From Candidatus Daviesbacteria bacterium (lineage in GTDB: Bacteria; Patescibacteriota; Microgenomatia; Daviesbacterales; UBA10151): a DNA stretch of 64,000 nucleotides. The notes under the pieces were generated by a model. The model was given only the letters and a program-made list of their open reading frames with translations. It had not been told where the DNA came from and did not search any database. The DNA lies in assembly GCA_028715175.1 (NCBI GenBank), contig JAQUSJ010000001.1:340550-404549 (forward strand), given 5' to 3'. Positions 10,470 through 49,588 of this stretch are shown here, one piece after another (the stretch's first letter is position 1; the number at the start of each line of letters is the position of its first letter). Position numbers and translations under genes: made by a program.

Positions 10470-10512
10470 ATTTCCTTTTCAGCTCCTATAAATTATACTA
10501 GTTTTCGACAGT

Positions 10513-12411
10513 ATGAGAAATAACAAATTAATATTTTGGAAAATAACAACCTTTTTTACCAAGAGAAGTTCTCTACAAATTTTTTTAATTCTTTTTCTTT
10601 TTGTATTCCTAATACAGTTCTCCTTGCTTAACATTATTTTAAAAAATGGATTTACTATGGAGGAGTGGTTATTGTTGTTTGATTACAAAACAATTGGACT
10701 AAACGCAAATTTTTTAGACAAATTTTTGAATATTTTTTATATAAAAGGCTTTTATACCACCTATCAAGTTATTTATATAGGTGTACTTGAAAGCTTATTC
10801 AAAGGCAATTATCAAGCCTATCAAATAACTAATATAATCTTTAAAGCACTAGCGACTCTCTCTCTGTATCCGCTTATACTAATAGTATTCAAGAGAAGAC
10901 TGCTGGCTTTTTTAACTACAGTGCTTTACGCAATAAGCTATTCTTCTGCAGGAGCTTTACAGTTTGTAGTCAAGGGCAGTGACTACCTGGCGATATTTTT
11001 TATGAATGTGTGCTTAATAGCATATTATTTATCTTTTAGAAAGAAAATAAAATTTTTATACATAACTGCTATTCTCTTACCTATAACTTTTCTATTTTCG
11101 CCCATTAGAATATATCCATTTTTGTCATTTATTGTTTTAGTTGAAGTTGTGATTTGGGTAAGAATCAGAGGATTATTGGGTTTAGTAACTGCATTATTAA
11201 GGTTAACATTAGTATTTTCTCTTTTTTTAATAATGGTGCTTTTGTTATCTCCAACGACAAGCGGTTACTTAAATGGGCCATTGATCGTATATAGATTTTT
11301 ATCCCATGGTAATTATCAGCTCCTATTGACCCCCTTTGCTGGATTAGGATATACGTTTTTGACAAACGATTATTGGTCATTTATATTTGGGAATGTTACT
11401 TTTGATAGTTTTAGAAATTTTTTATTCTTTTTACTTCATGGACCAATACTTATTTACTCAATTCTGGCAATATTAATGGGGATTTTAATCACTAAAAACC
11501 CTCTTCGTCTAATTTTGGGAATTATATCTGCAAATTTGCTTTTTGAAATAGTCAGCTACTTTCTAATCACCAATATTAGAGGTTCGGTTGGACCTGATGT
11601 AAAGGTTTTTGATCCAATAGGCACTTATCCAATCTTCCTTGGATTCTTCTGCTTATCGATTGCCGTATCAAGTCTAATTTTATGGTTGAGAATTCATAGG
11701 TCAAATATTTTGCTGTTGGTTCTTTTTATCGGCCCAATTTTTTCCAGTGTATTCTTGTGGGGTACGTGGTTTATCATAGGTGATATTTTAAATTTTAAAG
11801 AAGGGATACATTGGTATTTGATAATACCGCCAATAGGCAGCAGTCTATTTTTAGCCGGTTTAATGGTATTGGGATTTGATCGGATAAAGCGGATAGTTAA
11901 TTCTTATTTAAAATATACTTTGATAGGTTTTTTGTTTCTAACGATACTACCTTTATACTTGATTAGTGGTAAGGAGATTAATACAACTTTTACTGCTTTA
12001 CTTAAAACAGGATATAAAGCTTCTGATCAAGAACAAATGAAGAGCAGATTGCTTAGTTATATTAAAGAGCCTCTGGATAAGAATCCTGCACTGTTCTATT
12101 TCGAGAGCGAAGAAAAGATATTTTATCCGGTATATCTGGTTGTAGGGTTCGAACAGACAATGCTTTTTAGGAATTGGGAAGTTGTCAACGGATGCGTAGG
12201 TATTATTTACGATAAGAGTGTTCTTGAAAAGTCAGTAGCAGTAAAGGACGGTATTGAGGGATTTCAGGCAAGTAGTCTGTGTGTATCCGATTATTTCGCC
12301 GTAGAACGCCGGAATGTATTTTTTAGATCTGATAACTTTTATGCATTCAGGTTGAAAGATAAAAATGTAGTAGATATTAAAGAAGAAGTTCTTAAGAATT
12401 TGAATTTTTAA
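10513..12411 (+). CDS. Polytopic membrane protein, putative GT-C-fold glycosyltransferase ('YGDDW'-family paralog with conserved C-terminal 'YAFRLKDKN' motif)
   Basis: 632 aa, more than 10 TM helices. The C-terminal soluble tail shares a motif with 13588, 15336 and 27699. Confidence 0.5.
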   Translation: MRNNKLIFWKITTFFTKRSSLQIFLILFLFVFLIQFSLLNIILKNGFTMEEWLLLFDYKTIGLNANFLDKFLNIFYIKGFYTTYQVIYIGVLESLFKGNYQAYQITNIIFKALATLSLYPLILIVFKRRLLAFLTTVLYAISYSSAGALQFVVKGSDYLAIFFMNVCLIAYYLSFRKKIKFLYITAILLPITFLFSPIRIYPFLSFIVLVEVVIWVRIRGLLGLVTALLRLTLVFSLFLIMVLLLSPTTSGYLNGPLIVYRFLSHGNYQLLLTPFAGLGYTFLTNDYWSFIFGNVTFDSFRNFLFFLLHGPILIYSILAILMGILITKNPLRLILGIISANLLFEIVSYFLITNIRGSVGPDVKVFDPIGTYPIFLGFFCLSIAVSSLILWLRIHRSNILLLVLFIGPIFSSVFLWGTWFIIGDILNFKEGIHWYLIIPPIGSSLFLAGLMVLGFDRIKRIVNSYLKYTLIGFLFLTILPLYLISGKEINTTFTALLKTGYKASDQEQMKSRLLSYIKEPLDKNPALFYFESEEKIFYPVYLVVGFEQTMLFRNWEVVNGCVGIIYDKSVLEKSVAVKDGIEGFQASSLCVSDYFAVERRNVFFRSDNFYAFRLKDKNVVDIKEEVLKNLNF

Positions 12412-12434
12412 GTAAATAACTCTGATGTTAAAAT

Positions 12435-12698
12435 TTGCTTCAAAATGGCAAATTGGAAAAAGACTGTACGGCAACTTTTTATCAAGGAATAGATAAGTTG
12501 AGTAAAATAACCGTCCATGATAACAGAATAAAAGGCTTTGTTTATAGCGGACAATGCAGCCAAGGCGTTAAGGGAGGTGAAAGGGTTTTTTATCCGATTG
12601 ATAACTTTTATCCTTTTAGAATTAAAAATGGAGAAATTATTAATATAAAACAGGAAATTTTGTCCGAACTCACTTTTTTGCTACGGTTAAATAAATAG
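12435..12698 (+). pseudogene. Orphan fragment homologous to the C-terminal tail of the upstream GT-C-like gene (remnant of a deleted or decayed paralog)
   Basis: The 87-aa ORF 'GFVYSGQCSQGVKGGERVFYPIDNFYPFRIKNGEIINIKQEILSELTF' aligns to the upstream gene's end 'GFQASSLCVSDYFAVERRNVFFRSDNFYAFRLKDKNVVDIKEEVLKNLNF'. It has no N-terminal membrane domain. Confidence 0.4.
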
Positions 12699-13551
12699 GT
12701 GATTGTCCGACAATAAAGAAACATATCTCTACGAATGTCGAAATTATAATTAATGGAAATAATAAAATAAGAAAAATCGAATTATTAGAATCTTTAAAAA
12801 AATCAATCGGTCGCGACGGAAATAAATTTAATGTACTTGCTATAAATCCGGTAATTGTATATTCAAATGCTGGAACTCCGGAATGAGATATACTTCTAAA
12901 TTTCGATCTAGTTAAAATCTTTTCTAATCCCTTTGGAGTTAGATGTGATAAATGGCGTGGAGGATCTAAATGATACCAAAAGCGTTTAAAAATATGTGAT
13001 TCTAAGCAGTCAGCTCTCGGATATTCTACGAAAAGATAACCCCCATCATTCAGGATACTAGCTGCTTTTTTTATATATTCATGAGGGGAAACAGTATGTT
13101 CTAAACTTTCCCAAAAAACTACTGCATCAAATTTTATTTTAGGTTTCCAAGTTAAAAAATCTGTTTTTATTACATCCGGGTTTTGAATTTTAGCAGAAGG
13201 GAGATCTAAAGATGTTGCTTCAAAATTTTTGTTTAAAAATTTACTAAAGATGGCTTCCCCAGCTCCTACATCTAAAATCCTTCCTTTTTTCAAAAAATCC
13301 ATGATCCAATATTTTCGTCTAAGTTGAAAAAGGTGGTACATGGTTTTTTTCAAGATTCCGAGAAATCCTTTGGGTATCCAGTAGCTATCATTGTAATATT
13401 GACCAATATTTTTTGGAACAGGATATGTAAATCCATTTAAGCATTTTTTACAAAAGTAAATTTGGAATTCATCGCAATTAAACCTTTGAAAAGTCGGTGA
13501 ACTATTGCAATTAGGGCATTTTATCCGATGCTTGTTGTCTTTAGCTTTCAT
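12670..13551 (-). CDS. Class I SAM-dependent methyltransferase with N-terminal zinc-ribbon
   Basis: 'CPNCNSS...CKKCLNGF' Cys4 ribbon; SAM motif 'ILDVGAGEAIF'. Confidence 0.7.
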   Translation of the reverse strand: MKAKDNKHRIKCPNCNSSPTFQRFNCDEFQIYFCKKCLNGFTYPVPKNIGQYYNDSYWIPKGFLGILKKTMYHLFQLRRKYWIMDFLKKGRILDVGAGEAIFSKFLNKNFEATSLDLPSAKIQNPDVIKTDFLTWKPKIKFDAVVFWESLEHTVSPHEYIKKAASILNDGGYLFVEYPRADCLESHIFKRFWYHLDPPRHLSHLTPKGLEKILTRSKFRSISHSGVPAFEYTITGFIASTLNLFPSRPIDFFKDSNNSIFLILLFPLIIISTFVEICFFIVGQSPIYLTVAKK

Positions 13552-13587
13552 AATAATGGATGGTAGTTTATCATTTATCTAGAAAAA

Positions 13588-15333
13588 TTATCTTTCTTCT
13601 AGTAATTTTTGGCGTGTGATATTGGTAATATTTATCAGATTATCCTTACCCTGAAGACGAAAAGCATAAATATGGTCGATAGGAATAGGTTTTAACGGAT
13701 ATCCGTATGCCTTAAGCGATTGACCGTCTTTAACGGCAGATACTACATCCTTCCAATTATCAGTTGCTCCAGGGAATTTATCGCTTTCTGTCAGGTTATA
13801 TAAAAGAGCTATATGAAAAGGAAATCCAAACATAACCGATTCTCCCAGGATCCTAGCATTAGTTTCGTCTCTTTCGAAAAATAACAGAAACGGTTCTTTT
13901 CCGATATTTGGAATACGGGGAATAGATGACCAGATTTTGTCAACTATTTGCTGACTATGTGAGTTTAATAATTTATCAATAGATGTTCGAGTTGATGTTA
14001 TATGCAGGATTAGAAATAACGATAGTAATAAAGCCAAATAGACTTGATTTTTAAATTTCTTACCTAAGCTTATTATGATTGCCAGTAATATTGAAATACC
14101 TATTGCCGATGTTGTTAGATATCTATGGGTACTATCAATAGGGGAAGCAGGATTCCAAAGCCAAGCCATAAAGAAAGAAAATAAAGTCCATGAAAATGAT
14201 ATAAAAAGTGCAGTAAGTATGTTTTTTTGAGTTTGATACTTGAACATTAATAAAATCCATATAATAATTGCCAATCCTCCTACGATAGACATTAGAATCA
14301 TATTTGAGCTGGAGAAAGTAACAATATTTAACTTCCGGACAACAAAGACACTAAATATCCATATACTTGCAGTTATTAAGCATTTTTTTATATCATCTTT
14401 ATCAAATTTCTCAATATTTGCTTTGAATATAATTAAAAAGATTAAAAATAAAGCAATAGCAGGGAGAGTAACGGAAGATAACATATCGCTTTTTGTATTT
14501 ATTTGAATATTGGGAAAGGCGAAATTAGGGATAAACATTCCACCTATAGTTATTATTGGGTATAGAAGAAAGTCAGAGCGTCCTTCACTTAGCATTTTTT
14601 GGATTGTAGTGATACTTGAATTTAGTCTACTAAACCAATCCCCGCTATTCCCTAATGAATATCCGGAAATACCGATAGTGAGTAGTATAGTGAAAACAAA
14701 TATAACTTTAAGGAAGGAATGTTTTAAGTTATCAAATGTCTTGTTTTTAATTAACCAAAAAGCTTCTAAGGATAAAATAAATAGCGGTGCTCCAATCATT
14801 CGCTGTGATGCAGTGACACACGCAAGGTAAAAAAATATCCCGGAAAATAATAGAGTTCTTATTTTCTTAGTTTCGTGAAAAATTATGTAGAAATATAAAA
14901 AAATATTGAAGAAGGCAATTGTAAGATATGTGGGCATAGTCAGCAACCAGCCTGTGCTATCAAATCCTATTGTTGTAATTGAAAAAAACAACATAGCAAA
15001 AAAGGTAGCCAACTTATTCTTTGTGAGGTAGAAAACAAGCGGATATAGTGAGAAAGCAGCAAATAACCGAAAGATATAAGAGGTGACTTCATAGTAAAAA
15101 GCATTATTGCCAAAAAATTGATGAAGTAAACCCATGATGATATCTTGAGAACCATAAGGAGTGAGATAGTAGCTAAATAAATTCCATCCCTCTTTTGAAG
15201 GAGGATTTACATGTACGACATATCTGAAAATAGCCAACCAATCATCACCATATAAACCAATACCGAAACTTGGGATTAAGATTAAATAACTGATAATCAA
15301 TACTAATAAAAATTGCAGATAAACTAGTTTCAT
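13588..15333 (-). CDS. Polytopic membrane protein, putative GT-C-fold glycosyltransferase ('YGDDW' family)
   Basis: 581 aa, many TM helices, 'LYGDDWLAIF' near the N-terminus, C-terminal 'YAFRLQGKDNLINITNI' shared with its neighbour. Confidence 0.5.
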   Translation of the reverse strand: MKLVYLQFLLVLIISYLILIPSFGIGLYGDDWLAIFRYVVHVNPPSKEGWNLFSYYLTPYGSQDIIMGLLHQFFGNNAFYYEVTSYIFRLFAAFSLYPLVFYLTKNKLATFFAMLFFSITTIGFDSTGWLLTMPTYLTIAFFNIFLYFYIIFHETKKIRTLLFSGIFFYLACVTASQRMIGAPLFILSLEAFWLIKNKTFDNLKHSFLKVIFVFTILLTIGISGYSLGNSGDWFSRLNSSITTIQKMLSEGRSDFLLYPIITIGGMFIPNFAFPNIQINTKSDMLSSVTLPAIALFLIFLIIFKANIEKFDKDDIKKCLITASIWIFSVFVVRKLNIVTFSSSNMILMSIVGGLAIIIWILLMFKYQTQKNILTALFISFSWTLFSFFMAWLWNPASPIDSTHRYLTTSAIGISILLAIIISLGKKFKNQVYLALLLSLFLILHITSTRTSIDKLLNSHSQQIVDKIWSSIPRIPNIGKEPFLLFFERDETNARILGESVMFGFPFHIALLYNLTESDKFPGATDNWKDVVSAVKDGQSLKAYGYPLKPIPIDHIYAFRLQGKDNLINITNITRQKLLEER

Positions 15334-15335
15334 AC

Positions 15336-17144
15336 TTAACGCTGGTTTTGTAAAAATTCCACTAATTTTTTTCTAGCATTATCGGTGATATTTATCAAAT
15401 TATCTTTGCCTTGAAGATGGAAGGCGTAAACGCTTGAAGGTGAGATTGGATTTAAAACACGGCCGCCAAAATGAGGTGCAAATGATTTTCCATCCAAAAC
15501 TGCAGATTCTACATCTTTCCAGACAATCATTGAAACAGGGTTCTTATTCATCTCCGGTATGTTATAAAGTATAGCCATATGAAACGGAAAACCAAAAGTA
15601 ACCGTATCATTTAATATAGATCCATTAGTCTCATCACCTTCAAAATAAAATATTAGTGGTTCCTTATTCTTACCAATTTCTGAAATATAAGGCATTTGGG
15701 ACCAAATTTTGTTACTGGTTTCAGCACTATGATTTTCTAAAAGCCTCTGAAGATGTATACGGGTATTTATTATATGTATTAGTATTAAGAAAAAAAATAA
15801 TGATAATACGATTTTTTGATACTTTTGATTTTTTACCAAAGAAACTAAAGTGGCAAGGAAAAGACTTATGCCTACTGCCGATCCAATTAGATACCGGTGA
15901 TAAGTAACCAAAAGAAAAAATGGGTCCCATAACCATGGTATTAAGAAAGCTACGACAGACCAACATAAAGATGAAAATATTGCCTGGGAGATTAATTGAT
16001 TTCGATAAAATTTATGAAGCAAATATATTCCTAATATTGATATATAACCCCCGATAAGAAGTGAAATTAAGAATTTAGGGCCTGGGAAAGTTGTTTGATT
16101 AGCAAAATAAACTACAGCAGAGATTAAACTCCATAATGCAGTAAAAACTAATGTTGTCCTGGAAGAATAAGTTTTTTTTGGAAATATTGAACGCATAATG
16201 AATAACGATATGATGGTGAATATGCTGTACACGAGCAATATCAAAAAAACTAACTGAGATTTTTTTAACGCTATCGGGAAATTATCTATAGCCGTATCAG
16301 GAATAAACATACTGCCGAATGAAATGACTGGATAAAATAGGAAGTCGAATCTGTAATTTTCTAATTGCTTGATCATCTTTGATAATGAATCTGTTGTTTG
16401 AGTAAGCAAAAAGATATTGGATTGAGGTTTTGCTTCATTTTTTTGTGTTGAGGAAAAAAAAGGATTTCCAGTAACATTAATAAATATTAAAATTAAGAAA
16501 ATAAAAGATAATCGTAAAGATACCTTTTTTAGAATTTTTTTGCTCCAATTTTGGATGATCCAAAAAAATTCAATTAAAAGAATAAATAGTAGAAGTCCAG
16601 TCATTCGAACAGGAACAGTTACAAAAGACAGATAAAAAAATAATCCTGCGTATAACAACTTTTTAACCTCTTTTTCTTCTCGTGATCTCAGGAAGTAATA
16701 TAGAAATAGATTAAAGAATGTTAGACCTATATATGAAGGAATATGAGGAAGATATTCTGTAGTTTCTAATCCAATAGTAGTGATGCAAAAAAACAACATT
16801 GCAAAAAAAGAAGCCAGTTTGCTTTTGGTGAGATAAAAAGTAAGGGGATAAAGCGAAAAAGCGACTATAATTCTTACGATCATTGAAGTCATATAATAAT
16901 AAGAAGCATGATAACCATAAATTGCCCGGAAAAAACCCATTAAAATAGCTTGTGATCCATATCTAGTTAATGCTTCATTTAAAAAATCCCTCATACTTGG
17001 AGTAGATCCTTGGGGAAATAGATAGTTATATATAGAGAATATCATCCAATCGTCGCCGTAAAAAGATAATTTAAGAGTTGGAAAGAATACTACTAGCCCG
17101 ACTAAGAAAATTATCAAGAACATTAACCATAGTTTCATTAGCAT
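15336..17144 (-). CDS. Polytopic membrane protein, putative GT-C-fold glycosyltransferase ('YGDDW' family, tandem paralog of 13588..15333)
   Basis: 602 aa, 'FYGDDWMIFSIY' N-terminal motif, C-terminal 'YAFHLQGKDNLINITDN'. Collinear with the neighbour. Confidence 0.5.
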   Translation of the reverse strand: MLMKLWLMFLIIFLVGLVVFFPTLKLSFYGDDWMIFSIYNYLFPQGSTPSMRDFLNEALTRYGSQAILMGFFRAIYGYHASYYYMTSMIVRIIVAFSLYPLTFYLTKSKLASFFAMLFFCITTIGLETTEYLPHIPSYIGLTFFNLFLYYFLRSREEKEVKKLLYAGLFFYLSFVTVPVRMTGLLLFILLIEFFWIIQNWSKKILKKVSLRLSFIFLILIFINVTGNPFFSSTQKNEAKPQSNIFLLTQTTDSLSKMIKQLENYRFDFLFYPVISFGSMFIPDTAIDNFPIALKKSQLVFLILLVYSIFTIISLFIMRSIFPKKTYSSRTTLVFTALWSLISAVVYFANQTTFPGPKFLISLLIGGYISILGIYLLHKFYRNQLISQAIFSSLCWSVVAFLIPWLWDPFFLLVTYHRYLIGSAVGISLFLATLVSLVKNQKYQKIVLSLFFFLILIHIINTRIHLQRLLENHSAETSNKIWSQMPYISEIGKNKEPLIFYFEGDETNGSILNDTVTFGFPFHMAILYNIPEMNKNPVSMIVWKDVESAVLDGKSFAPHFGGRVLNPISPSSVYAFHLQGKDNLINITDNARKKLVEFLQNQR

Positions 17145-17199
17145 AAAAACTACACTTTTTATAATTCAAAAGCAATATGCGTTATGGTAGTATTTATCT

Positions 17200-18039
17200 T
17201 TGATAATGAATAATAATATGCTTGTTTCAGTAATAATTACTTCAAAAAATGAAGCTGAAGTGATCGACAATTTAATTCAGTCATTGAAGGGACAGACCCA
17301 TAAAGATTTAGAGGTTATCCTGATTGATAATAATTCAAGAGATAATACAGTAAAAATTGTTGAAAAATTAGGAATTAAAATATATAACTATGGACCAGAA
17401 AGAAGCGCACAAAGAAATTTTGGAGCAAAGAAAACTAAAGGAAGATTCCTTTTTTTTCTTGATGCTGATATGAAGCTTTCACCGACTGTAGTAGAAGAGT
17501 GCGTTAAAACGAGCATCTCCGATAAAAAAATAGGCGCTGTATTTGTGCCGGAAAGATCAGTAGCTGCAAATTTCTGGGAAAAAGTAAAAGCATTTGAAAG
17601 ATCTTTTTACAACGAAAAAGGGGATGAAATAACTGATGCTGCGAGGTTTTTTAAAAGAGAAGCGTTTGAAAAAAGTGGAGGTTATGATGAGACTATTACT
17701 GGGCCGGAAGATTGGGAATTAACAGGGAGTATTAAAGCGCTTGGTTATAAAACAGGAAGGATACGATCTGTTATTTATCATTACGAGAGGATCGATTCAC
17801 TTATCAGTTTGGTTAGAAAAAAATTTTATTATGGTCTTCGTTCGCATAGGTATTTATCTAAACAAAATGTTCCGGTTATTAGTCCGAAAACTATTTATTT
17901 CCTAAGACCTGTATTCTATAAACACTTTGATAGAATAATCGCACATCCGATATTGAGTACAGGTATGTTCATTATGTTAACAATGGAACTGTTTGCCGGC
18001 GGATCGGGGTATTTAATCGGAAAGGCGAAACGGCTTTGA
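17200..18039 (+). CDS. Glycosyltransferase family 2
   Basis: 'VSVIITSKNEAEVI...ILIDNNSRDNT', 'LDADM' DxD. Confidence 0.75.
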   Translation: MIMNNNMLVSVIITSKNEAEVIDNLIQSLKGQTHKDLEVILIDNNSRDNTVKIVEKLGIKIYNYGPERSAQRNFGAKKTKGRFLFFLDADMKLSPTVVEECVKTSISDKKIGAVFVPERSVAANFWEKVKAFERSFYNEKGDEITDAARFFKREAFEKSGGYDETITGPEDWELTGSIKALGYKTGRIRSVIYHYERIDSLISLVRKKFYYGLRSHRYLSKQNVPVISPKTIYFLRPVFYKHFDRIIAHPILSTGMFIMLTMELFAGGSGYLIGKAKRL

Positions 18040-19154
18040 AGATATTACAATTAACAGCTCATTTTAAACCTAATATTGGTGGAGTAGAAACCCATCTAAT
18101 AGATTTAGTAAATATCTTAATAAAAAAGAACTGGGAGGTAACAGTTCTTACATATAATCCTTTGACTACCCAAGTGAAATCAAAAGTCTACGAGAAAGAC
18201 CGGTCTTTAACAATAATCAGATTGCCTTGGTTTTCAGGTTTATTTTATAGATTAATTAACTATCCGATATTGGAATTTCTTTATTTACTACCAGGATTAT
18301 TTTTTGCTGCTCCGATCCTTATGGTGATAAACAACACTGATGTAATCCATGCTCATGGTCTTGTAGCCGGATTCGTTGGTGTGTTTTGGGGAAAAATATT
18401 TAGAAAAAAAGTAATTATTTCCACCCATAGTATTTATAGCTTTCCTAAGAGTGGATTATATAGAGAATTTGTTACTTTTCTTTTTAAGAACGCTGATTGT
18501 TGCTTAGGTCTCTCGAAACAATCAGGAAATGAGATTAAATCTTTAGGAATAAATGAAAAACAGGTTAAAGTTTTTACCTATTGGGTTGATTTAGATAAAT
18601 TTAAGAAAATTTTATATGCCAAAAATAAATTGAAATGGAATCAAGATTTTGTTGTCCTATTTGTAGGAAGATTGGTACACGAAAAAGGGTTAGAGGTATT
18701 GCTTGAATCCGTTAAGAGTTGGAATAAAGAGATTAAATTAAAAATAATCGGATCAGGACCTCTTGAGACTAAAGTAAGAAAAGTCGCATCGCAATTATCA
18801 AATATGGATTTTATTGAAGGTATTGATTCAAAGAACCTACCTATATATTATAGCGGGGCTGACTTGTTAATTGTTCCATCTATCTCAGAAGAAGGTTTTG
18901 GAAGAGTTATAATTGAAGCGTTGGCATGTGGTACACCAGTACTTGGAGCAAAAAGAGGAGCTATTCCAGAGGCCTTAGATGAAACAGTTGGTAAGCTTAT
19001 AGATATTAGCCCGGATGATATTAAACAAGCAGTGAACTATTTCTTTAAGTCAAAAGATAAATTAAAAATGCTTGCGAGAAATTGTCGGAATTTTGCAGAA
19101 AGGAGATATTCTGAAAAAAATGCAGAAACAATCATTAAAGCATATAGATCATAA
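18036..19154 (+). CDS. Glycosyltransferase family 4
   Basis: 'EGFGRVIIEALACGTPVLGAKRGAIPE' GT4 C-terminal motif. Confidence 0.8.
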   Translation: MKILQLTAHFKPNIGGVETHLIDLVNILIKKNWEVTVLTYNPLTTQVKSKVYEKDRSLTIIRLPWFSGLFYRLINYPILEFLYLLPGLFFAAPILMVINNTDVIHAHGLVAGFVGVFWGKIFRKKVIISTHSIYSFPKSGLYREFVTFLFKNADCCLGLSKQSGNEIKSLGINEKQVKVFTYWVDLDKFKKILYAKNKLKWNQDFVVLFVGRLVHEKGLEVLLESVKSWNKEIKLKIIGSGPLETKVRKVASQLSNMDFIEGIDSKNLPIYYSGADLLIVPSISEEGFGRVIIEALACGTPVLGAKRGAIPEALDETVGKLIDISPDDIKQAVNYFFKSKDKLKMLARNCRNFAERRYSEKNAETIIKAYRS

Positions 19155-19185
19155 TTTAAATTTTTCTCTGAAAAATGTAGGTGAT

Positions 19186-20852: not shown

Positions 20853-21609
20853 ACACCCACAATTTTAATCTAGAACAAACTGGACCTAAGTTTAGGGTTT
20901 CTCCTACTTTTGAAGAACTAGCAATTTTATTGAACTTAGAATTCCAGTTGAGTTCTTCCTCAAAATATGGTCGCAGTCCCCGTGTTAGCATAAAATATTC
21001 ACCTAATCCGTCTTCCTCAACAAATATATAACCATTCTTTCTCATAAAATTAATCAAAATTTGATCATTAAAAAATAAGTTGTGCCATTTGACAGGAATA
21101 GATTTTAATCCAAATGCACTCCTTAATTTATTTAATGTTTCTACCCCCTCCAAACTCCCTTCAAGCAAGATTAATTTGCCGCCCTTTTTAAGCATAGATT
21201 TGAAATCTAGTAAAACTTTTTGTTGTAGTTTCCATCCCAACAAATTAATAAGAAATCTTTGTGAAATAATAGCGTCATAATTATTATTTAATGAATATTT
21301 TCCTAAAAAATCAATTTTTCTTAAAGTGACGTTGTTGCATCTGGAGAGCCTACTAGCAGCCTTTTTTAATCTGGTTTCAGAAAAATCAACTGCATGAATT
21401 TTTACTCCAGGGATTTTAGAATATTCTAATGTCCCCTCACCTTCACCGCAGCCTGCGTCTAATATTTTAGATTTTTTTGCAAGCCGCTTTTTTATTAGCT
21501 TTATTTCAAGATTCAGGAGGTATTTATCATACATTGACTCAACGTTATCCTGGTTCCAATATTCCAATACTTCTTGAGAATTGTGAATGGGTTTGACCGT
21601 TATTTTCAT
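20839..21609 (-). CDS. Class I SAM-dependent methyltransferase
   Basis: 'ILDAGCGEGEGT' motif I. Confidence 0.7.
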   Translation of the reverse strand: MKITVKPIHNSQEVLEYWNQDNVESMYDKYLLNLEIKLIKKRLAKKSKILDAGCGEGEGTLEYSKIPGVKIHAVDFSETRLKKAASRLSRCNNVTLRKIDFLGKYSLNNNYDAIISQRFLINLLGWKLQQKVLLDFKSMLKKGGKLILLEGSLEGVETLNKLRSAFGLKSIPVKWHNLFFNDQILINFMRKNGYIFVEEDGLGEYFMLTRGLRPYFEEELNWNSKFNKIASSSKVGETLNLGPVCSRLKLWVFKNG

Positions 21610-21650
21610 ACGCTAATTTATTTATTTGGATTATATCAAATAGGGTCTTC

Positions 21651-21679
21651 TTTACAAAGAGTAAAATAGATAATATGAT
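21651..21679 (+). promoter_or_regulatory. Putative sigma70-like promoter (TTTACA-17-TATGAT) upstream of the aminotransferase gene
   Basis: Hexamers at 21651-56 and 21674-79 in the divergent intergenic region, about 28 nt upstream of the ATG at 21707. Confidence 0.25.
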
Positions 21680-21706
21680 TGTGAAAATTATTATAGAATA
21701 TTAATA

Positions 21707-22801
21707 ATGATTAATGTAACTAAAACAACTCTGCCTCCAATTAATAAATACATCAAATATTTAAAGAAAGTGTGGATGAATAATTGGATAACTAACAAGG
21801 GGGAATTTACTCTTCAGTTAGAAAAGGAATTAAAAAATTATCTTAAAGTAAAAAATTTATCAGTTGTCAGCAATGGGACCATTGCTATGCAACTTGCATT
21901 TAAAGCCTTAAAATTAAAAGGAGAAGTAATCACCACCCCCTTTACTTTTCCGGCAACAACGAATTCTTTAATATGGGAAGGGTTAAAACCGGTTTTTGCC
22001 GATATAGACCCCGAAACTTTTAATATTGACGCTAAAGAAATTGAGAAAAAAATAACTAAAGAAACATCCGCTATTTTAGCCGTGCACGTATTTGGTAATC
22101 CCTGTGATGTTGAGGCAATAGAAAAAATTGCCAAAAAATATAACTTAAAAATTATTTATGACAGCGCTCATGCTTTTGGAATAGAGTATAAAGATAAATC
22201 TGTCCTTTCCTGGGGCGATATAAACACTTTAAGTTTTCATGCAGCTAAAGTTTTTCATACTGCAGAGGGTGGAGCAGTAATAGCCAGGAAAAAGCGCGAC
22301 TACCAAATGCTCGATCTTCTTAAAAATCATGGGATTGAATATTACGATAAAGTAGTTATTGCCGGCATTAATGCTAAAATGAATGAACTGCAGGCAATAA
22401 TGGGACTGTGTGTTTTAGAAGATTTTGAAAAATCAATTATCAAAAGAAAGAAAATTTACCAAAGGTACAAAGAAGCTTTTTTAAAAAATCCCCTAATAAA
22501 AATACAAAAATTACATAATAATTTAACTAAATATACCTATCCTTATTTTCCAGTTTTTTTCCCCGATGAAAAAACAAGAGAACGCATTTTTAAAGTTTTA
22601 TTAAAAAATGGAATCAGGGCCAGAAAATATTTCTATCCTCCCTGTCACGAGTTTCCCTATATAAAATATTCTTCTTCTGATTTGCCTAATGCAACTAAAA
22701 TTTCTCACACAATTCTTTGTTTACCACTTTATGCAACCCTTACTACAAAAGATCATGAAAGAATTATTAACTTAGTTAACAAAGCTTTACTTAGCCTCTA
22801 G
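21707..22801 (+). CDS. DegT/DnrJ/EryC1/StrS-family PLP-dependent sugar aminotransferase
   Basis: 364 aa, 'FHAAKVFHTAEGGAV' (PLP lysine), N-terminal 'GEFTLQLEKELKNYL'. Confidence 0.8.
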   Translation: MINVTKTTLPPINKYIKYLKKVWMNNWITNKGEFTLQLEKELKNYLKVKNLSVVSNGTIAMQLAFKALKLKGEVITTPFTFPATTNSLIWEGLKPVFADIDPETFNIDAKEIEKKITKETSAILAVHVFGNPCDVEAIEKIAKKYNLKIIYDSAHAFGIEYKDKSVLSWGDINTLSFHAAKVFHTAEGGAVIARKKRDYQMLDLLKNHGIEYYDKVVIAGINAKMNELQAIMGLCVLEDFEKSIIKRKKIYQRYKEAFLKNPLIKIQKLHNNLTKYTYPYFPVFFPDEKTRERIFKVLLKNGIRARKYFYPPCHEFPYIKYSSSDLPNATKISHTILCLPLYATLTTKDHERIINLVNKALLSL

Positions 22802-22844
22802 TTATTAATTTTCAATTAAATTGAATAAAAAGCGAGACAATGAA

Positions 22845-22874
22845 TTGACAACTAGGGAGTCATGGTCATATTAT
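22845..22874 (+). promoter_or_regulatory. Putative sigma70-like promoter (TTGACA-18-TATTAT) just upstream of the carbamoyltransferase gene; would give a leaderless or near-leaderless mRNA
   Basis: TTGACA at 22845-50, TATTAT at 22869-74, ATG at 22882. Confidence 0.25.
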
Positions 22875-22881
22875 ACTGGGA

Positions 22882-24585
22882 ATGATTCTAAAGAATTCTT
22901 CTGTAATTGTTTTAGGTATTCATGACGGACACAACAGTGGAGCCGCTTTAATTCGCGACGGAGAAGTGCTTGCGGCAATCAACGAAGAAAGATTTAATAA
23001 TATTAAAAATTATTCAGGAGCTCCGGTTTTAGCCATAAAAAAGGTTTTTGAAATCTCAAAAATTAAGCCCAGTGAAGTTGACTTGATTACCATAGCTAGT
23101 TTTCTACGGCTTGATGATCCGGTGAAAGTAGAAGGCAATAAATTACATCTACTGGCAGAGTATCTTGCACCCTTGATGCATCAAAAATGGTTTATAAAAA
23201 ATAGCATTGCGATATTACATAAATTTAGAAGAATTAGTGAGGTAAAAAAAGTTTTAGATGATTTAGGCATTGGCAACAAGAAAATCAGTTTTATTGAACA
23301 TCATCTGGCTCATGCCGCCTGCGCTTTTTATCAAAGGTCATGGGACGGTAAAACACTGATATTAACTTTGGACGGAATGGGGGATGGTTTGTCTGCCACA
23401 GTTAATATTGGGTCAGGTTTTAATATTAAAAGAATAGCGGAAACTTCCTTTTACGATAGCCTTGGTAACAACTTGTATTCCGAAATTACTGCTTATTTAG
23501 GAATGAAACGGTGGGAACATGAATATAAAATCATGGGACTGGCGCCTTACGGAAAACCGGATAAAGTTCTTGATGTTTTGAGAAAGGGAATACGGATAAA
23601 TCCGCAACAGCCTTTAGAATTTGAGAATATCTCAGGATATTATTTGAAGAAGATGCAAACCTTTTATCAAAAAGCTTTGACCGGATATAGATTTGATAAT
23701 ATTGCAGCTGCTACTCAAAAACTCTTTGAAGATTTAGTGGTGCAGTGGGTCAAAAATGCTATTAAACAGACAAAACTGAATAAAATAGTTTGCGCCGGCG
23801 GTTCTTTTTTAAATGTTAAATTAAATAAATTAATTCGAGAGCTTAACGAAGTTGATGAAGTTTTCTTTTATCCGGCTGCTGAAGATGGTGGTTCTGCAGT
23901 TGGAGCGGCTTTAGAAGGTTACTATAGATTTTGCCAGCAGAATAAAATTTCTGCTAAAAAGATACAGATTTCGGATATATACTATGGACAATCGTTCTCC
24001 GATGAGCAGATTACCGAATTCATCAAATCTAAAAGATTAAAAAATGTTGCCAGGAAAGTTTCGCCAGCTAAAATAGCAAAATTGCTGACTCAAGGAAAAA
24101 TAATCGCCAGATTTTCCGGAAGAGATGAATGGGGACCAAGGGCTTTAGGTAACAGAAGTATTATGGCTGATCCCCGGGATATGCGAGTAATCAGAAAGAT
24201 TAATTTTGCCATCAAACAACGGGATTTTTGGATGCCTTTTGCTCCGGCGGTTTTAGAAGAGGATCAAGGTAGATACTTTAAAAAAAGCAGATTTGCTCCC
24301 TACATGATTGAGGCATTCGATACTACGGATGAAGCTCAAGAAATTATTGCCGGACTTCATCCTTATGATTTAACAGGTCGACCTCAAACAGTCAACAACT
24401 GGAATCCCTGCTGGCAGGCTATTATTAGAGAATTCAAAAAACTTACCAGTGTAGGAGGCATAGTGAATACGTCTTTTAATCTGCATGGTTATCCTTTGGT
24501 AGGTAATCTAGAGCAAGCTTTATGGACATTTAGAAACAGTAGGCTAGACGGTTTGTTATTAGGTGATTGGTTAATTGAAAAATAA
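22882..24585 (+). CDS. NodU/CmcH-family O-carbamoyltransferase
   Basis: 567 aa; 'IEHHLAHAACAFYQ' (HxxH...A carbamoyltransferase N-terminal motif) and a YrdC/Kae1-like fold region. Confidence 0.8.
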   Translation: MILKNSSVIVLGIHDGHNSGAALIRDGEVLAAINEERFNNIKNYSGAPVLAIKKVFEISKIKPSEVDLITIASFLRLDDPVKVEGNKLHLLAEYLAPLMHQKWFIKNSIAILHKFRRISEVKKVLDDLGIGNKKISFIEHHLAHAACAFYQRSWDGKTLILTLDGMGDGLSATVNIGSGFNIKRIAETSFYDSLGNNLYSEITAYLGMKRWEHEYKIMGLAPYGKPDKVLDVLRKGIRINPQQPLEFENISGYYLKKMQTFYQKALTGYRFDNIAAATQKLFEDLVVQWVKNAIKQTKLNKIVCAGGSFLNVKLNKLIRELNEVDEVFFYPAAEDGGSAVGAALEGYYRFCQQNKISAKKIQISDIYYGQSFSDEQITEFIKSKRLKNVARKVSPAKIAKLLTQGKIIARFSGRDEWGPRALGNRSIMADPRDMRVIRKINFAIKQRDFWMPFAPAVLEEDQGRYFKKSRFAPYMIEAFDTTDEAQEIIAGLHPYDLTGRPQTVNNWNPCWQAIIREFKKLTSVGGIVNTSFNLHGYPLVGNLEQALWTFRNSRLDGLLLGDWLIEK

Positions 24586-24598
24586 AGCCTATTAATTT

Positions 24599-25323
24599 AT
24601 GACTCAATATTTAACAAGAATACAAAAAGAAAACCGAAAAAGAATATTGGAGATTAGCTATAAGCATAAACTTTCTCATTTAGGTTCATGCCTTTCGGTT
24701 GTGGATCTAATTGATGCGGTTTATCGAATAAAGAAGACAGAAGAAAAATTTATATTAAGCGCAGGTCATGGAGGCGTTGCTTTGTATACAGTACTGGAAA
24801 AATACAGCAATGTTGATGCGGAAAAACTGTTTAAAAAGCATGGCGTGCATCCCAATAGAGATAAAAGAAATGAAATTCATTGCTCAACCGGTAGTTTAGG
24901 TCATGGTTTACCGAGATAGCTTTGGGTATGGCGCTGGCTGATAGGAATAAAAATGTTTATTGTTTGATATCAGACGGAGAATGTACGGAAGGGTCAGTTT
25001 GGGAATCATTCAGAATTGCTGACGATTTAAAAGTTAATAATTTAAAAATTATTTTAAACGCTAACGGCTGGGGAGCATATAGCAAAATTTCACTTAAGCC
25101 CTTAATAATAAGAATTAAATCATTTGATATGGCTCTTTGCGTTATTGATGGTCACAATATTAGTCAAGTCGTTGATGCCCTTAAGAAAAAAAGACAAGAT
25201 AAACCTTTAGTTATTTTTGCCAAAACTATTGTTGAGCAATTTCCCTTTTTGCAAGGTCAAGATGCTCATTATTATGTAATGAGTGATGAAGATTATTTAG
25301 CAGCAGTAAAGTTATTGAAGTAA
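24599..25323 (+). pseudogene. Transketolase-like TPP-binding N-terminal subunit, interrupted by a frameshift at about 24913-24916 (ORFs 24599..24919 and 24922..25323)
   Basis: 'SHLGSCLSVVDLIDAVY...SAGHGGVALYTVLE...HCSTGSLGHGLPR*' continues in the -1 frame as 'TEIALGMALADR...LISDGECTEGSVWES'. Removing 2 nt (AG) restores 'GHGLPIALGMALA'. Confidence 0.55.
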
Positions 25324-25324
25324 T

Positions 25325-25834
25325 ATGGCTATTCAAAAGAAATTACCATATCCAAGTATGAGAGGATATTTTGCCCATTATCTCTATGAGGAAATGGTAA
25401 AAAATAAAAAGATTTACATTATTACCGGCGATTTAGGATATAAGATGTGGGATCAAATAAAAAAAGATTTTCCGGACAGGTTTATTAATGCGGGAGCTTC
25501 GGAGCAGGCAATGATGGGGATTGCGGTAGGATTGGCGCTGGAAGGTAAAATTCCTTTTGTTTATTCTATACCAACTTTTCTGTTATATCGTGCCTTTGAA
25601 ACTATTAGAAATTATTTAAATATTGAAAAAATACCTGTAAGGTTGGTAGGGTCGGGAAGAGGTAGGGATTATACTCATGACGGAATAACACATTGGCCGG
25701 AAGAAGAAAAAGAAGTTATGGCAATTTTTCAAAACATTAAGTCTATTTGGCCGGAAAATCTAACAGAGATAGCAGTTTTAGTTAAAAAGATGGTAAAAGC
25801 CAATAGACCTTGGTACATTAACTTGAAAAGATAA
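25325..25834 (+). CDS. Transketolase-like pyrimidine-binding (C-terminal subunit) domain protein, short (169 aa; lacks the usual C-terminal domain)
   Basis: 'FINAGASEQAMMGIAVGLALEGKIPFVYSIPTFLLYRAFETIRN' is a Transket_pyr domain. Confidence 0.6.
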   Translation: MAIQKKLPYPSMRGYFAHYLYEEMVKNKKIYIITGDLGYKMWDQIKKDFPDRFINAGASEQAMMGIAVGLALEGKIPFVYSIPTFLLYRAFETIRNYLNIEKIPVRLVGSGRGRDYTHDGITHWPEEEKEVMAIFQNIKSIWPENLTEIAVLVKKMVKANRPWYINLKR

Positions 25835-25840
25835 GATTTA

Positions 25841-26794
25841 TCATTTTTTGTGATTATTTATAATTTCTTGAACTATTGCTTCGGGACGATTTTTAACTTC
25901 TTCAAAGATACGACGGATATATTCTGAAAGTAAGGTTAGAACTACAAGTTGTACGCTGCCAATAAATAAAATTGCTAGGAGTGTAGTAATAAATCCTTTG
26001 GGTGCATCAGGTACAACAAAATACATTGCGAAGTAAAAGAATATACCAAAGAGTGTTATAAAGGTGCTTAGTATAGCTGCGTAAAAAACCCATTCAAGGG
26101 GGGCATAAGAATAAGAAAATACTGCTTTTCTGGCCCACTGTAATCCTTTCCAAAAGCTAGTAGTTGAAACTCCTTCTCCCCAGTACCGCTCTGGTCTTAT
26201 GTATTCAATCCCAATTTGTTTAAATCCCACCCAGGCTCTAAGTCCTCTGATAAATCTGTCCTTTTCCGGGAGTCTGTTTATATGGTCAACAACAACTCTG
26301 TCCATGAGCGAGAAATCTCCTGCATCAAGCGGCACTTTAATATAGCTTAATTTGTTAAAAATAACGTAGAACATATGATAGATGAATTCCCAAATAGGTC
26401 CCATGCTTTGCTCTCGTTTTTTACGGCTACCATAAACTACTTGATATCCCTCCAACCATTTTTTAACAAATTGCTTTATTAGTTCAGGAGGATCTTGTAA
26501 GTCTCCATCCATTAAAACAACGATATCGCCGGTAGACTGTTTCATGCCGGTGGTAAAAGCATTTTGAGCGCCAAAATTTCTCGAATGAAGGATTACTGTT
26601 AAACGTTTATCTTCCTTGGCTAATTTTCTTAAAATTTGTTCCGAATTATCTGGGCTGTCATCATTAACGTAAATAATTTCCCAATTAGGTGTGATTTTTT
26701 TTAAAACTTTAACAGTTCTTCGGTACAACTCTTCAATATTACCTTCGTCGCGAAAAGCAATTGGTACAACAGAGATTTTTTTCCTTGTCAGCAT
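25841..26794 (-). CDS. GT2 polyprenol-phosphate sugar synthase-like glycosyltransferase (GtrB/ArnC/DPM1-like, two C-terminal TM helices)
   Basis: 'ISVVPIAFRDEGNIEEL...YVNDDSPDNS', 'MDGDLQDPPE' DxD, C-terminal TM pair. Confidence 0.75.
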   Translation of the reverse strand: MLTRKKISVVPIAFRDEGNIEELYRRTVKVLKKITPNWEIIYVNDDSPDNSEQILRKLAKEDKRLTVILHSRNFGAQNAFTTGMKQSTGDIVVLMDGDLQDPPELIKQFVKKWLEGYQVVYGSRKKREQSMGPIWEFIYHMFYVIFNKLSYIKVPLDAGDFSLMDRVVVDHINRLPEKDRFIRGLRAWVGFKQIGIEYIRPERYWGEGVSTTSFWKGLQWARKAVFSYSYAPLEWVFYAAILSTFITLFGIFFYFAMYFVVPDAPKGFITTLLAILFIGSVQLVVLTLLSEYIRRIFEEVKNRPEAIVQEIINNHKK

Positions 26795-27615
26795 AGTGGT
26801 TTTTTTAACTTTAGATGGAAAGATTCCATTTGGGATAGTATTTTAAAATAAATGTTAGAAGGTAGCAACTTAATAATTTTAAAAATAAAAAAGATACTTT
26901 TAGGATAAAAAAATTGTGCTTTATTACTTTTGGTTGAATTAATTATACAGTTTACTGCTTGATCTTCCGAAAGAATAAATGGGGCAATTTTCTTAAAAGG
27001 TCCCATCCCGGAGCCAATCGGTCCAAAATAAATAGTTTTAAATATGATGCCTTTGTCTTTATATTTTTGATAAAGACTCTCAAAACCGATAGATAGAGCT
27101 GCTTTGCTAGCAGCATAACCGATTCCCTCTATTCCGCTTCCTTTTAAGGCAGAAAAAGAAGATATTGCGATAAATTGGGTTCCTGGTTTTGCAAATGGAA
27201 TCAAGCTATTAATTCCTCTCATAATTCCTAGAAAATTTACGTCCACCATTTTTTTTAAAGTTTCTATCTCAATGCCATTTTTCAAATCATTTTGAGAAAT
27301 AGCTGCATTAAATATAATAATTTTTGGTATGAAATTTTTTTCTTTAAACTTATTGACAAGAGATTGCCAACAATTCTTTTCTGTCTGATCCATGGGTGTA
27401 TAAATGAAATTTGCGGAATTGTTTAATTCTTCCTTCAATTCTTTTAGTCGCTGTCCTCTTCTTGCTATTCCCCATACAATTTGTTTATCCGAAATGAGTT
27501 TTTTTGTTAAGGCTTTGCCTATTCCTGAAGAAACACCTGTTATTAAATACTTGCTCATGTTATTTTCTATGATTTTCTTTAGTAGAAGATTATTATACTC
27601 TAGATTTGAATTCAT
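26788..27615 (-). CDS. Short-chain dehydrogenase/reductase (SDR)
   Basis: 'YLITGVSSGIGKALTKKL' TGxxxGIG; 'YAASKAAL' YxxxK. Confidence 0.8.
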   Translation of the reverse strand: MNSNLEYNNLLLKKIIENNMSKYLITGVSSGIGKALTKKLISDKQIVWGIARRGQRLKELKEELNNSANFIYTPMDQTEKNCWQSLVNKFKEKNFIPKIIIFNAAISQNDLKNGIEIETLKKMVDVNFLGIMRGINSLIPFAKPGTQFIAISSFSALKGSGIEGIGYAASKAALSIGFESLYQKYKDKGIIFKTIYFGPIGSGMGPFKKIAPFILSEDQAVNCIINSTKSNKAQFFYPKSIFFIFKIIKLLPSNIYFKILSQMESFHLKLKKPLC

Positions 27616-27698
27616 TGAAATAAACTGCCATAATAAAAAATGGTCATAATGGTCATTTTATATAGTTTGTGGTTATGTAAATTTATGGAGAATAAAAG

Positions 27699-29231
27699 AT
27701 GGTAGAAGTACTTAGAAAAAAACAAAAATTAATATTTGTAATTTTTGTTTTCCTAATTTTTATGGTATCCTTTCTTACTTTTTGGAGAGCTTTTGGTTTT
27801 GACTTTTGGGGAGAGGATTGGGAGCAAATATGGTATGCAGTGTTTAGCCCATCACTTATTAATAATCAACAAATTTATCCTCATCCGATTGTGATCTATG
27901 AAGAATTGTTCTTGGCAAAGTTTTTGGGTTTTAATACATTATACTGGCAAACAATAGGATATTTATTAAAAGTTTTGGGTGCATTTGCAGTAAGTTTAAT
28001 GATGCTAGGGATTACAAGATCAAAAAGAGTGGCTATTTTTACGGGATTGATATATGCTTCTTCGGTTGGCGGTTTGGCGTCGGTAACCTGGGTAGCTGCT
28101 CAAGCCTCCGCGTTAGAAATTCCTTTTTTGTGTCTCGGGATATATTTTTGGATTACGAAAAAGAATTATGTACTAGCATTAGCACTGCTAATATTTAGCA
28201 TCTGGGCTGATCCTTCCAGGGGTATTTTTGGATGTCTTATTGTTATTTTATGGGATATCTTGACATATATTCAGAATACAAACAAAGTTATCTCCATTAA
28301 GCCTTGGAAAAGAGTATTAATTTTAATAATAGCAATCTTCTTCATAAAGTCTTTTCTTCTTGGTCAAAGATTTTTTGAGATATTACCCACACTAGATGTA
28401 AATATTAACTACATAGTTAATTATCCTATTGAAGTGTTGACTAATTTCCTTAATACGTTAGGCAATTTACTTGTTGGATGGTTTATCTCAATTCCACAAA
28501 ACGTTTTCGCCGTTTCGATACCAACTTTTATAGGGATAGCGGCGGGTTATCTTTTTTTATTTCAGACGATCTTTTTATTAGTTTATTTTCTAAAAAAGAA
28601 GAATGAATCTTTTAAGATATTATTTATTTTTTCAATATGGATAGTAGTTTTCTTTTTACCAAATTGGCTGTTAGCCGATAATTCGATGATTGGTTCCGAA
28701 AGACGGGTTTTAGGGCAGACACATCGCTATCTTACGCTTTCCGCCGTTGGTTTAGCTTGTTTTCTAGGATATGCGCTGTCAAGAGTAAAACGTAATCATC
28801 TCCAAGGGTTTTTACTATTATTTGTAGTAGGTAGCAATATCGTTATATCTAACCAAATTCTAAAAAAGGAAGCATATTACCGTTCTACGGAGGTGACAAA
28901 ACCTATGTGGGATAAAATCGAAAAAGATGTACCTGTGGGTGAAGAAAATAGTCTTTTCTTTATCCGGGGAGAGGATAAATTTAGAGTAAATGATATTTCT
29001 CAAATTAAAATTCCCTTTGCGATACGAAGAGGAATAATAAGCCGTGATAAGTGGCCCGGTTCTACTTCCGATCCTGGAGTAGTGAAAAGATACATGTGCG
29101 GTAATACTGATGATAGACGAATAGTGCCGCTTTCTCGTCTTCACGTCTGGTATATAAAAGGGAACACATTGGATAATATATCGGAAAAAGTACGAAAAGA
29201 ATTTAGTGAGATGGATTGTAGTTCTCAATAA
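27699..29231 (+). CDS. Polytopic membrane protein, putative GT-C-fold glycosyltransferase ('WGEDW', related to the YGDDW family)
   Basis: 510 aa, many TM helices, N-terminal 'FWGEDWEQIWYAV', C-terminal 'LHVWYIKGNTLDNISEKV' resembling the family's C-terminal motif. Confidence 0.5.
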   Translation: MVEVLRKKQKLIFVIFVFLIFMVSFLTFWRAFGFDFWGEDWEQIWYAVFSPSLINNQQIYPHPIVIYEELFLAKFLGFNTLYWQTIGYLLKVLGAFAVSLMMLGITRSKRVAIFTGLIYASSVGGLASVTWVAAQASALEIPFLCLGIYFWITKKNYVLALALLIFSIWADPSRGIFGCLIVILWDILTYIQNTNKVISIKPWKRVLILIIAIFFIKSFLLGQRFFEILPTLDVNINYIVNYPIEVLTNFLNTLGNLLVGWFISIPQNVFAVSIPTFIGIAAGYLFLFQTIFLLVYFLKKKNESFKILFIFSIWIVVFFLPNWLLADNSMIGSERRVLGQTHRYLTLSAVGLACFLGYALSRVKRNHLQGFLLLFVVGSNIVISNQILKKEAYYRSTEVTKPMWDKIEKDVPVGEENSLFFIRGEDKFRVNDISQIKIPFAIRRGIISRDKWPGSTSDPGVVKRYMCGNTDDRRIVPLSRLHVWYIKGNTLDNISEKVRKEFSEMDCSSQ

Positions 29232-49576: not shown

Positions 49577-49588
49577 CTGATATTGAGA

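Follow-up and report, generated by a model that had tools for sequence, protein, structure and literature searches.

A stretch of 64,000 nt from an uncultured Candidatus Daviesbacteria bacterium (contig JAQUSJ010000001.1, positions 340,550–404,549 of the forward strand; hereafter the window) raises the question of what four of its genes, named A to D here (Table 1), contribute to the cell surface. Daviesbacteria are Microgenomates, a group within the candidate phyla radiation (CPR, or Patescibacteria). CPR genomes are about 0.75 Mb in size, and the Daviesbacteria genome devotes at least 64 kb to surface-glycan genes, including the four considered here, which are unannotated. A reading of the window from its sequence alone (the sequence-only reading) had proposed that A–D are related, GT-C-like membrane proteins. 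The results below make it likely, with a probability of roughly 0.7, that they are membrane-embedded glycosyltransferases of the GT-C fold (type GT-C_A, to which ArnT, PMT, PglB/STT3 and DPY19 belong) that take sugars from a lipid-linked donor and transfer them outward to the surface.

Four homologous membrane proteins

All four open reading frames (ORFs) are present as the sequence-only reading had described them, and all are polytopic; A, B and D, and the short ORF 12435–12698, are identical to NCBI proteins encoded on one contig of 743,708 bp. Pairwise alignment with composition-based statistics confirmed that they form a genuine homologous family. B shares 41% identity with C across 600 aligned columns (E = 2e-137), in line with the 40–50% that had been estimated by eye, while B and A are 25% identical over 514 columns (E = 5e-14). 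B and D align in two segments, an N-terminal part and a C-terminal part that includes the tail, each with 24–26% identity and E = 3e-12. The ~55 profile positions missing from D correspond to two transmembrane (TM) helices, so that the topology is preserved.

The genome has a G+C content of about 32% and the family proteins abound in I, L, F and K, features that would favour a purely compositional similarity of the four ORFs, or of their C-terminal motif, arising from hydrophobic, AT-rich low complexity. The data rule this out. The pairwise E values (2e-137 to 3e-12) were obtained under composition-based statistics, and an exhaustive profile search of representatives clustered at 50% identity gave 2643 members at E ≤ 1e-3, 769 at E ≤ 1e-10 and 392 at E ≤ 1e-30. 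The tails of A and D outscored all 200 shuffled sequences on a profile made from B- and C-type tails only (see below), and the family profile had no matches among all the other window proteins, polytopic ones included.

Predicted fold

An AlphaFold2 model of B, computed from a 31-sequence alignment, had a mean predicted local distance difference test score (pLDDT) of 90.9 and a predicted template-modelling score (pTM) of 0.90, and no segment fell below 50. TM1 (residues 2–24) is followed by an outer loop with short helices (30–42, 52–56 and 61–74), then by twelve more TM helices; residues ~470–581 form an alpha/beta domain. When the model was compared with the PDB using Foldseek, ranks 1–18 were all GT-C_A enzymes: STT3 (of the human, yeast and dog oligosaccharyltransferases, OSTs), AglB, DPY19, ArnT and PglB, with E values from 5e-5 to 2e-2 and probabilities of 0.96–1.0. 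The best value belonged to STT3 (5e-5), STT3 and AglB together spanned 5e-5 to 5e-4, and ArnT was found at 3e-3. Rank 19 was PIG-U of the glycosylphosphatidylinositol (GPI) transamidase (7w72_U, probability 0.87) and rank 20 was PglB again, while major facilitator superfamily and other transporters appeared from rank 21 with probabilities below 0.3. ALG6, of the GT-C_B type, had a probability of 0.60 and WaaL 0.23. The 13 TM helices and cytoplasmic N-terminus of B also agree with GT-C_A, which has 8–13 TM helices.

The GT-C-like character claimed by the sequence-only reading is therefore upheld by fold and not by sequence: profile comparison with GT-C families returned no PDB or Pfam sequence match above threshold, whereas the top structural matches were all GT-C. 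Several results weigh against the assignment. The four proteins gave no match above threshold in Pfam or NCBIfam and none in Pfam even at E ≤ 1, including PF13231/PF02366 (PMT_2/PMT), YfhO, GtrII/DUF2142, PTPS_related, Emb/Aft and the other models of the Pfam GT-C clan. PDB profile searches with alignments of 4, 31 and 127 sequences likewise gave nothing above threshold, so that no sequence method ties the family to a characterised GT-C enzyme. In the surroundings of the genes, no GtrA-type flippase was matched in the window by Pfam, and the best-conserved neighbour from glycosyltransferase family 2 (GT2), 17200–18039, fits generic GT2 families better than polyprenyl-phosphate sugar synthases. 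Among 75 relatives searched against Pfam at E ≤ 1, matches to the GT-C clan were sub-threshold (PTPS_related in two, E = 0.005; PMT_2 in one, E = 0.003). A link to the window's own PMT_2 proteins was rejected; hhalign aligned them weakly, over TM2–TM5 only, with probabilities of 1% and 10%.

STT3, AglB and PglB transfer an oligosaccharide en bloc from a polyprenyl-diphosphate carrier to proteins. The main rival explanation follows from the rank of STT3 and AglB as the best structural matches (E = 5e-5 to 5e-4): A–D could move a preassembled oligosaccharide from polyprenyl diphosphate to surface proteins such as S-layer proteins or pilins. The Wzx-like flippases and the many GT2 and GT4 glycosyltransferases of the window could build such a lipid-linked oligosaccharide, and the C-terminal domains of B, C and D types carry a conserved N-I-T/S sequon. 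This is nevertheless quite unlikely. B has no WW dipeptide and therefore no WWDxG motif, there is no Pfam STT3 match, and the C-terminal domain, at about 120 residues, is unlike the periplasmic domain of OSTs and returned nothing in Foldseek when searched alone. Tandem paralogs standing beside small genes for polyprenyl-phosphate-synthase-like GT2 enzymes also fit monosaccharide donors better.

Conserved residues and topology

A catalytic acidic residue (DxD or modified) in the first extracytoplasmic loop, just after TM1, is a hallmark of GT-C enzymes (PMC8035078, PMC11127046). The first loop was said to carry a shared acidic aromatic motif, and this is exactly so in B (LYGDDW), C (FYGDDW) and D (FWGEDW); in A the motif is FTMEEW, acidic but not identical. 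Conservation was assessed across 370 aligned members drawn from every subfamily, using B numbering. The motif is [DE][DE][WY] at residues 30–32, six residues past TM1, with D at position 30 in 84% (chief alternative E), D at position 31 in 89% and W at position 32 in 83% (chief alternative Y), the remaining residues being mostly conservative substitutes. Of four further conserved positions, R178 is invariant (100%), and Y405 reaches 99%, G264 96% and W391 95%. Y405 is the last residue of a conserved H403-R404-Y405 motif in B.

Topology was assessed by taking the TM helices from the AlphaFold2 model and counting K and R in the short loops, according to the positive-inside rule. They make up seven of the 21 residues assigned inside, versus two of the 43 assigned outside, which places the acidic motif, R178, H403-R404-Y405 and the C-terminal domain on the outer face in the model. 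The fusion of GT2 domains to the N-terminus in some relatives (see below) is consistent with this N-in topology. R178 and the H-R-Y motif may bind the lipid phosphate, as comparison with ArnT and GT136 suggests.

The presence of PIG-U among the Foldseek matches (probability 0.87) brings up a different possibility, that the proteins have a GT-C-like fold but are not transferases, serving instead as a scaffold or lipid-carrier-binding subunit as PIG-U does in the GPI transamidase; that A carries EE in place of DD would fit. It is very unlikely, given that the acidic pair (D or E), R178 and Y405 are kept in nearly all 370 members, A types included, as expected of an active site, and that an enzymatic role is indicated both by the fusions with GT2 catalytic domains and by the glycan-locus setting.

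The C-terminal domain

The four proteins had been reported to share a distinctive soluble tail that was not recognisable as a named domain. The isolated C-terminal domain was modelled as a four-stranded alpha/beta fold of about 120 residues (pLDDT 86, pTM 0.80), in which the string YAFxLQGKDNLINIT makes up the final beta-hairpin and caps the terminal helix; it is thus a folded domain and not a mere tail. The aligned tail letters are IYAFRLQGKDNLINIT in B, VYAFHLQGKDNLINIT in C, FYAFRLKDKNVVDIK in A and LHVWYIKGNTLDNIS in D. On the profile made from B- and C-type tails only, the A tail scored 16.0 bits and the D tail 11.3 bits, against 6.0 bits for the best of the 200 shuffles, and the domain is therefore regarded as homologous across the subfamilies. 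A proper alignment of the four tails with ORF 12435–12698 recovered this homology, removing the concern that the likeness was one of low complexity. The shared tail thus holds for A–D as a domain, but the literal GKDNLINIT string is a signature of the B/C subfamily.

The domain does lack a name: it had no Pfam match at E ≤ 10, a profile of the C-terminal region alone returned only noise from the PDB, and the best Foldseek matches to the isolated domain (E = 0.5) were alpha/beta folds resembling the anticodon-binding domains of aminoacyl-tRNA synthetases, also noise. A weak match of the 127-sequence profile to the LCP enzyme TagU (6uf6, E = 0.058) was rejected as chance because the C-terminal-only profile, Pfam and Foldseek did not reproduce it. 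From its position, and by analogy with other GT-C enzymes, the domain probably helps to select the acceptor. Two cysteines are common to the tails of A types (A included) and to ORF 12435–12698, and would suit an extracytoplasmic location.

The last hairpin of B (nt 13591–13650, residues ~562–581) contains an N-I-T/S sequon that is also present in C and D; N568 and T570 are conserved in at least 90% of B/C types, the sequon is N-I-S in D, and it is absent from A types. An N-glycosylation-type sequon thus stands in a protein that matches oligosaccharyltransferases best in fold, although here it is probably a helix cap.

Distribution and domain fusions

All listed members that carry a name in their source database are annotated as 'hypothetical protein', and none has a precomputed Pfam domain. 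The organisms named are Daviesbacteria or Patescibacteria, apart from one partial protein labelled Actinobacteria. Nineteen loci were obtained from species-representative genomes, and their informative titles are Daviesbacteria, Woesebacteria, Microgenomates group and Patescibacteria group; the title 'uncultured Gammaproteobacteria' on binchicken assemblies is presumed to be a placeholder. Our verdict is that this is a sequence-orphan GT-C family restricted to Microgenomates.

Family members of 855–899 aa from other metagenomes carry at their N-terminus an additional cytoplasmic enzyme domain, about 300 residues long. It was identified by Pfam as GT2 in three proteins (P0193, P0225 and P0229), the P0193 domain being 39% identical to the window protein 17200–18039, and the N-termini of P0234 and P0237 are similar by BLAST to GT2 genes of the window. 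In P0261 an NAD-dependent epimerase/dehydratase is fused to the family member.

Tandem copies and a gene relic

The stop codon of C lies two bases before the start codon of B on the same strand, and this tandem pair had been taken as a sign of local paralog expansion. That proposal was correct, with the refinements that the B/C duplication is old and that the window also records loss. One related locus (L001) keeps the order C-B-methyltransferase-A, with orthologues at 63%, 71%, 60% and 51% identity; the duplication is therefore older than the divergence of these genomes. Copy number in related genomes varies from one to six per locus: L002 carries a row of six, three of B/C type and three of A type, while three A-type genes accompany a single B-type gene in both L006 and L008 and two B/C-type genes in L010. 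The orthologue of D in L020 lies directly after split transketolase genes, in a similar sugar-modification cluster.

Loss is represented by ORF 12435–12698, which is 33% identical to the last 82 residues of A (E = 4e-11). Its best matches are the C-termini of the extra A-type genes of L002 (42–46% identity), one of which adjoins a methyltransferase gene in the same placement, and it is therefore considered a remnant of a deleted A-type paralog. The ORF clusters with no other protein (a singleton) and shares 29 nt with the 3′ end of the convergent methyltransferase gene.

Gene neighbourhood

Nearly all identifiable genes of the window belong to glycan biosynthesis. They encode GT2 and GT4 glycosyltransferases, many S-adenosylmethionine (SAM) methyltransferases, sugar epimerases and dehydratases, a DegT aminotransferase, a carbamoyltransferase, a split transketolase, a UDP-GlcNAc 2-epimerase, an asparagine-synthase-like enzyme, two Wzx-like flippases, two PMT_2-type GT-C proteins and several large polytopic proteins without a Pfam match. 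C and B are followed on the minus strand by the methyltransferase gene 12670–13551, and a divergent plus-strand block (GT2, GT4, methyltransferase, GT2) begins at 17200. The methyltransferase gene is conserved, adjoining B-type genes in five related loci (L001, L002, L003, L006 and L013). A scan of 10300–17400 for promoters and terminators gave 37 promoter-like sites, compared to 35.9 expected by chance, and no terminators.

Two GT2 genes near the family members resemble polyprenyl-phosphate sugar synthases. The protein 25841–26794 matches PgfS (2e-67) and ArnC (2e-38) over its full length, both short of the NCBIfam equivalog cut-offs, and carries two TM helices at its C-terminus. For 9723–10469 the three best NCBIfam models, all sub-threshold, are the polyprenyl/dolichyl-phosphate monosaccharide synthases AglJ, PpgS and Dol-P hexose transferase, and its homologues adjoin A-type genes in L001, L008 and L010. 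Counterparts of the GT2 gene 17200–18039 adjoin family members in Daviesbacteria and also in loci of Woesebacteria-like type (L016 and L018, 39–41% identity).

Table 1. Features of the window, with positions counted from its first nucleotide.
Feature	Position	Strand	Size	Remarks
Flippase candidate	818..2092	+		Wzx-like (Polysacc_synt)
GT2	9723..10469	-	248 aa	divergent from A; candidate donor-making enzyme
Paralog A	10513..12411	+	632 aa	A-type subfamily; PHE48_01920
Acidic motif of A	10657..10668	+		E50-E51-W52; positions cover M49–W52
Relic ORF	12435..12698	+	87 codons	C-terminal half of soluble domain only; PHE48_01925, NCBI 'hypothetical protein'
SAM methyltransferase	12670..13551	-	293 aa	C-terminal TM segment; downstream of B
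Paralog B	13588..15333	-	581 aa	13 TM helices; modelled protein; PHE48_01935
C-terminal domain of B	13591..13971	-	residues 455–581	alpha/beta, predicted extracytoplasmic; YAFRLQGKDNLINIT motif is last beta-hairpin
Acidic motif of B	15238..15249	-		G29-D30-D31-W32
Paralog C	15336..17144	-	602 aa	tandem with B
Acidic motif of C	17046..17057	-		G30-D31-D32-W33
GT2	17200..18039	+	279 aa	divergent from C
GT2, GtrB/ArnC-type polyprenyl-phosphate glycosyltransferase	25841..26794	-	317 aa	~0.9 kb from D
Paralog D	27699..29231	+	510 aa	short subfamily; PHE48_02005
Acidic motif of D	27810..27821	+		G38-E39-D40-W41
Flippase candidate, second	59392..60651			Wzx-like

Proposed mechanism

The use of a polyprenyl-phosphate-linked donor, and glycosyl transfer itself, are suggested by the nearby ArnC/PgfS-like and PpgS/AglJ-like GT2 genes and by the GT2 fusions. 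A cytoplasmic or membrane-anchored GT2 enzyme would load a sugar onto polyprenyl phosphate, the candidates being 25841–26794, 9723–10469 and possibly 17200–18039. The lipid-linked sugar would then be flipped to the outer face, for which the window offers the two Wzx-like proteins as candidates. There, the GT-C protein would move the sugar to an extracellular acceptor, with the acidic pair after TM1 (D30/D31 in B) as the putative catalytic centre and with the invariant R178 and H-R-Y (403–405) holding the lipid phosphate, and the family-specific 120-residue domain, also on the outer face, would probably assist in acceptor choice. The paralogs may each differ in the sugar or linkage that they contribute to a surface glycopolymer or glycoprotein made by the 64-kb locus.

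Two small membrane ORFs, 49232–49576 and 55952–56446, encode products of 114 and 164 aa, each with about two to four hydrophobic segments and unmatched in Pfam; these could be the small flippases that the glycosylation systems otherwise lack.

Relation to known systems

The family resembles ArnT (GT83) and other PMT_2-type GT-C enzymes in its ~13 TM helices, inside N-terminus, acidic catalytic residue right after TM1 and small C-terminal extracytoplasmic domain, as well as in the placement of its genes beside a GT2 gene for a polyprenyl-phosphate sugar. It differs in having no significant PMT_2/PMT sequence match (one of 75 members at E = 0.003, hhalign at most 10%); the C-terminal domain does not match that of ArnT, and no GtrA-type flippase was matched nearby. 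With STT3, AglB and PglB (GT66) it shares the TM core, as the best Foldseek matches show, and an acidic motif after TM1, but it lacks WWDxG (tested in B) and a Pfam STT3 match, and its C-terminal domain is far smaller and unrelated. Mycobacterial Emb/Aft and the Gtr proteins of Shigella and Salmonella are comparable in having several GT-C paralogs, presumably forming different linkages on one polymer, and a variable copy number; they are not among the top structural matches, and differ in tandem-array organisation and C-terminal domain.

GT136, represented by ORF12 of Citrobacter youngae, is a recently founded orphan GT-C family whose fold was recognised only by structure prediction (PMC11127046). 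Compared by description only, it has a catalytic Asp at about residue 31, after TM1, an extra C-terminal extracytoplasmic domain, and an R-Y pair proposed to lie at the lipid phosphate and sugar, R349/Y350 there and R404/Y405 here (PMC11127046). The descriptions also set the two apart: GT136 has a carbohydrate-binding module, a MATE flippase and a phosphoribosyl-derived donor, whereas the Daviesbacteria family carries a small alpha/beta domain, and its genes form tandem arrays in CPR genomes. Like GT136 when it was founded (PMC11127046), the present family is a candidate for a new CAZy family.

Most likely, the family adds to a known enzyme class a new branch that is confined to one lineage and has a C-terminal module of its own, and is not a new kind of system; the mechanism proposed above is the standard GT-C one. 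Literature searches on GT-C enzymes in Patescibacteria/CPR found nothing, and a preprint on Saccharibacteria calls their glycosylation processes unexplored (PMC11623550). With the GT-C fold assigned, a block of dark-matter genes yields a testable hypothesis on how the surface is built. A further-reaching interpretation, rather unlikely, is that these are glycosyltransferases invented within the CPR, with the C-terminal domain as a new acceptor-recognition module and with tandem gain and loss, of which the Daviesbacteria genome holds a fresh relic, rapidly varying the surface glycan. If so, the varied glycan of these ultrasmall, probably episymbiotic cells would alter host attachment or phage sensitivity, and the family would provide a new CAZy glycosyltransferase family and a genetic handle on surface variation in Microgenomates.

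Other features of the window

Neither Pfam nor NCBIfam gave a match for six more large membrane proteins (2855–4885, 31196–33901, 33939–36299, 45702–49235, 49583–52615 and 56661–59360). An N-terminal polytopic block is present in five of them, while 2855–4885 has only about three hydrophobic segments; those starting at 31196, 45702, 49583 and 56661 additionally contain a long soluble region and are anchored by a C-terminal TM segment. Homologues of 33939–36299 adjoin B-type genes in L003 and L005–L008, and in the window this gene is followed by an ArnC-like GT2 gene (36308–37267). Genes 45702–49235 and 49583–52615 share 1581 bp at 100% nucleotide identity (45755–47335 and 49639–51219), representing either a recent duplication or gene conversion, or else an artefact of assembly; the encoded proteins show 87% identity up to residue 643 and diverge beyond it.

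The gene for the N-terminal subunit of transketolase (24599–25323) is split by a frameshift near 24913–24916 into ORFs 24599–24919 and 24922–25323, and is either a pseudogene or the product of a sequencing error. Its orthologue in L020 is a single gene of 240 aa.

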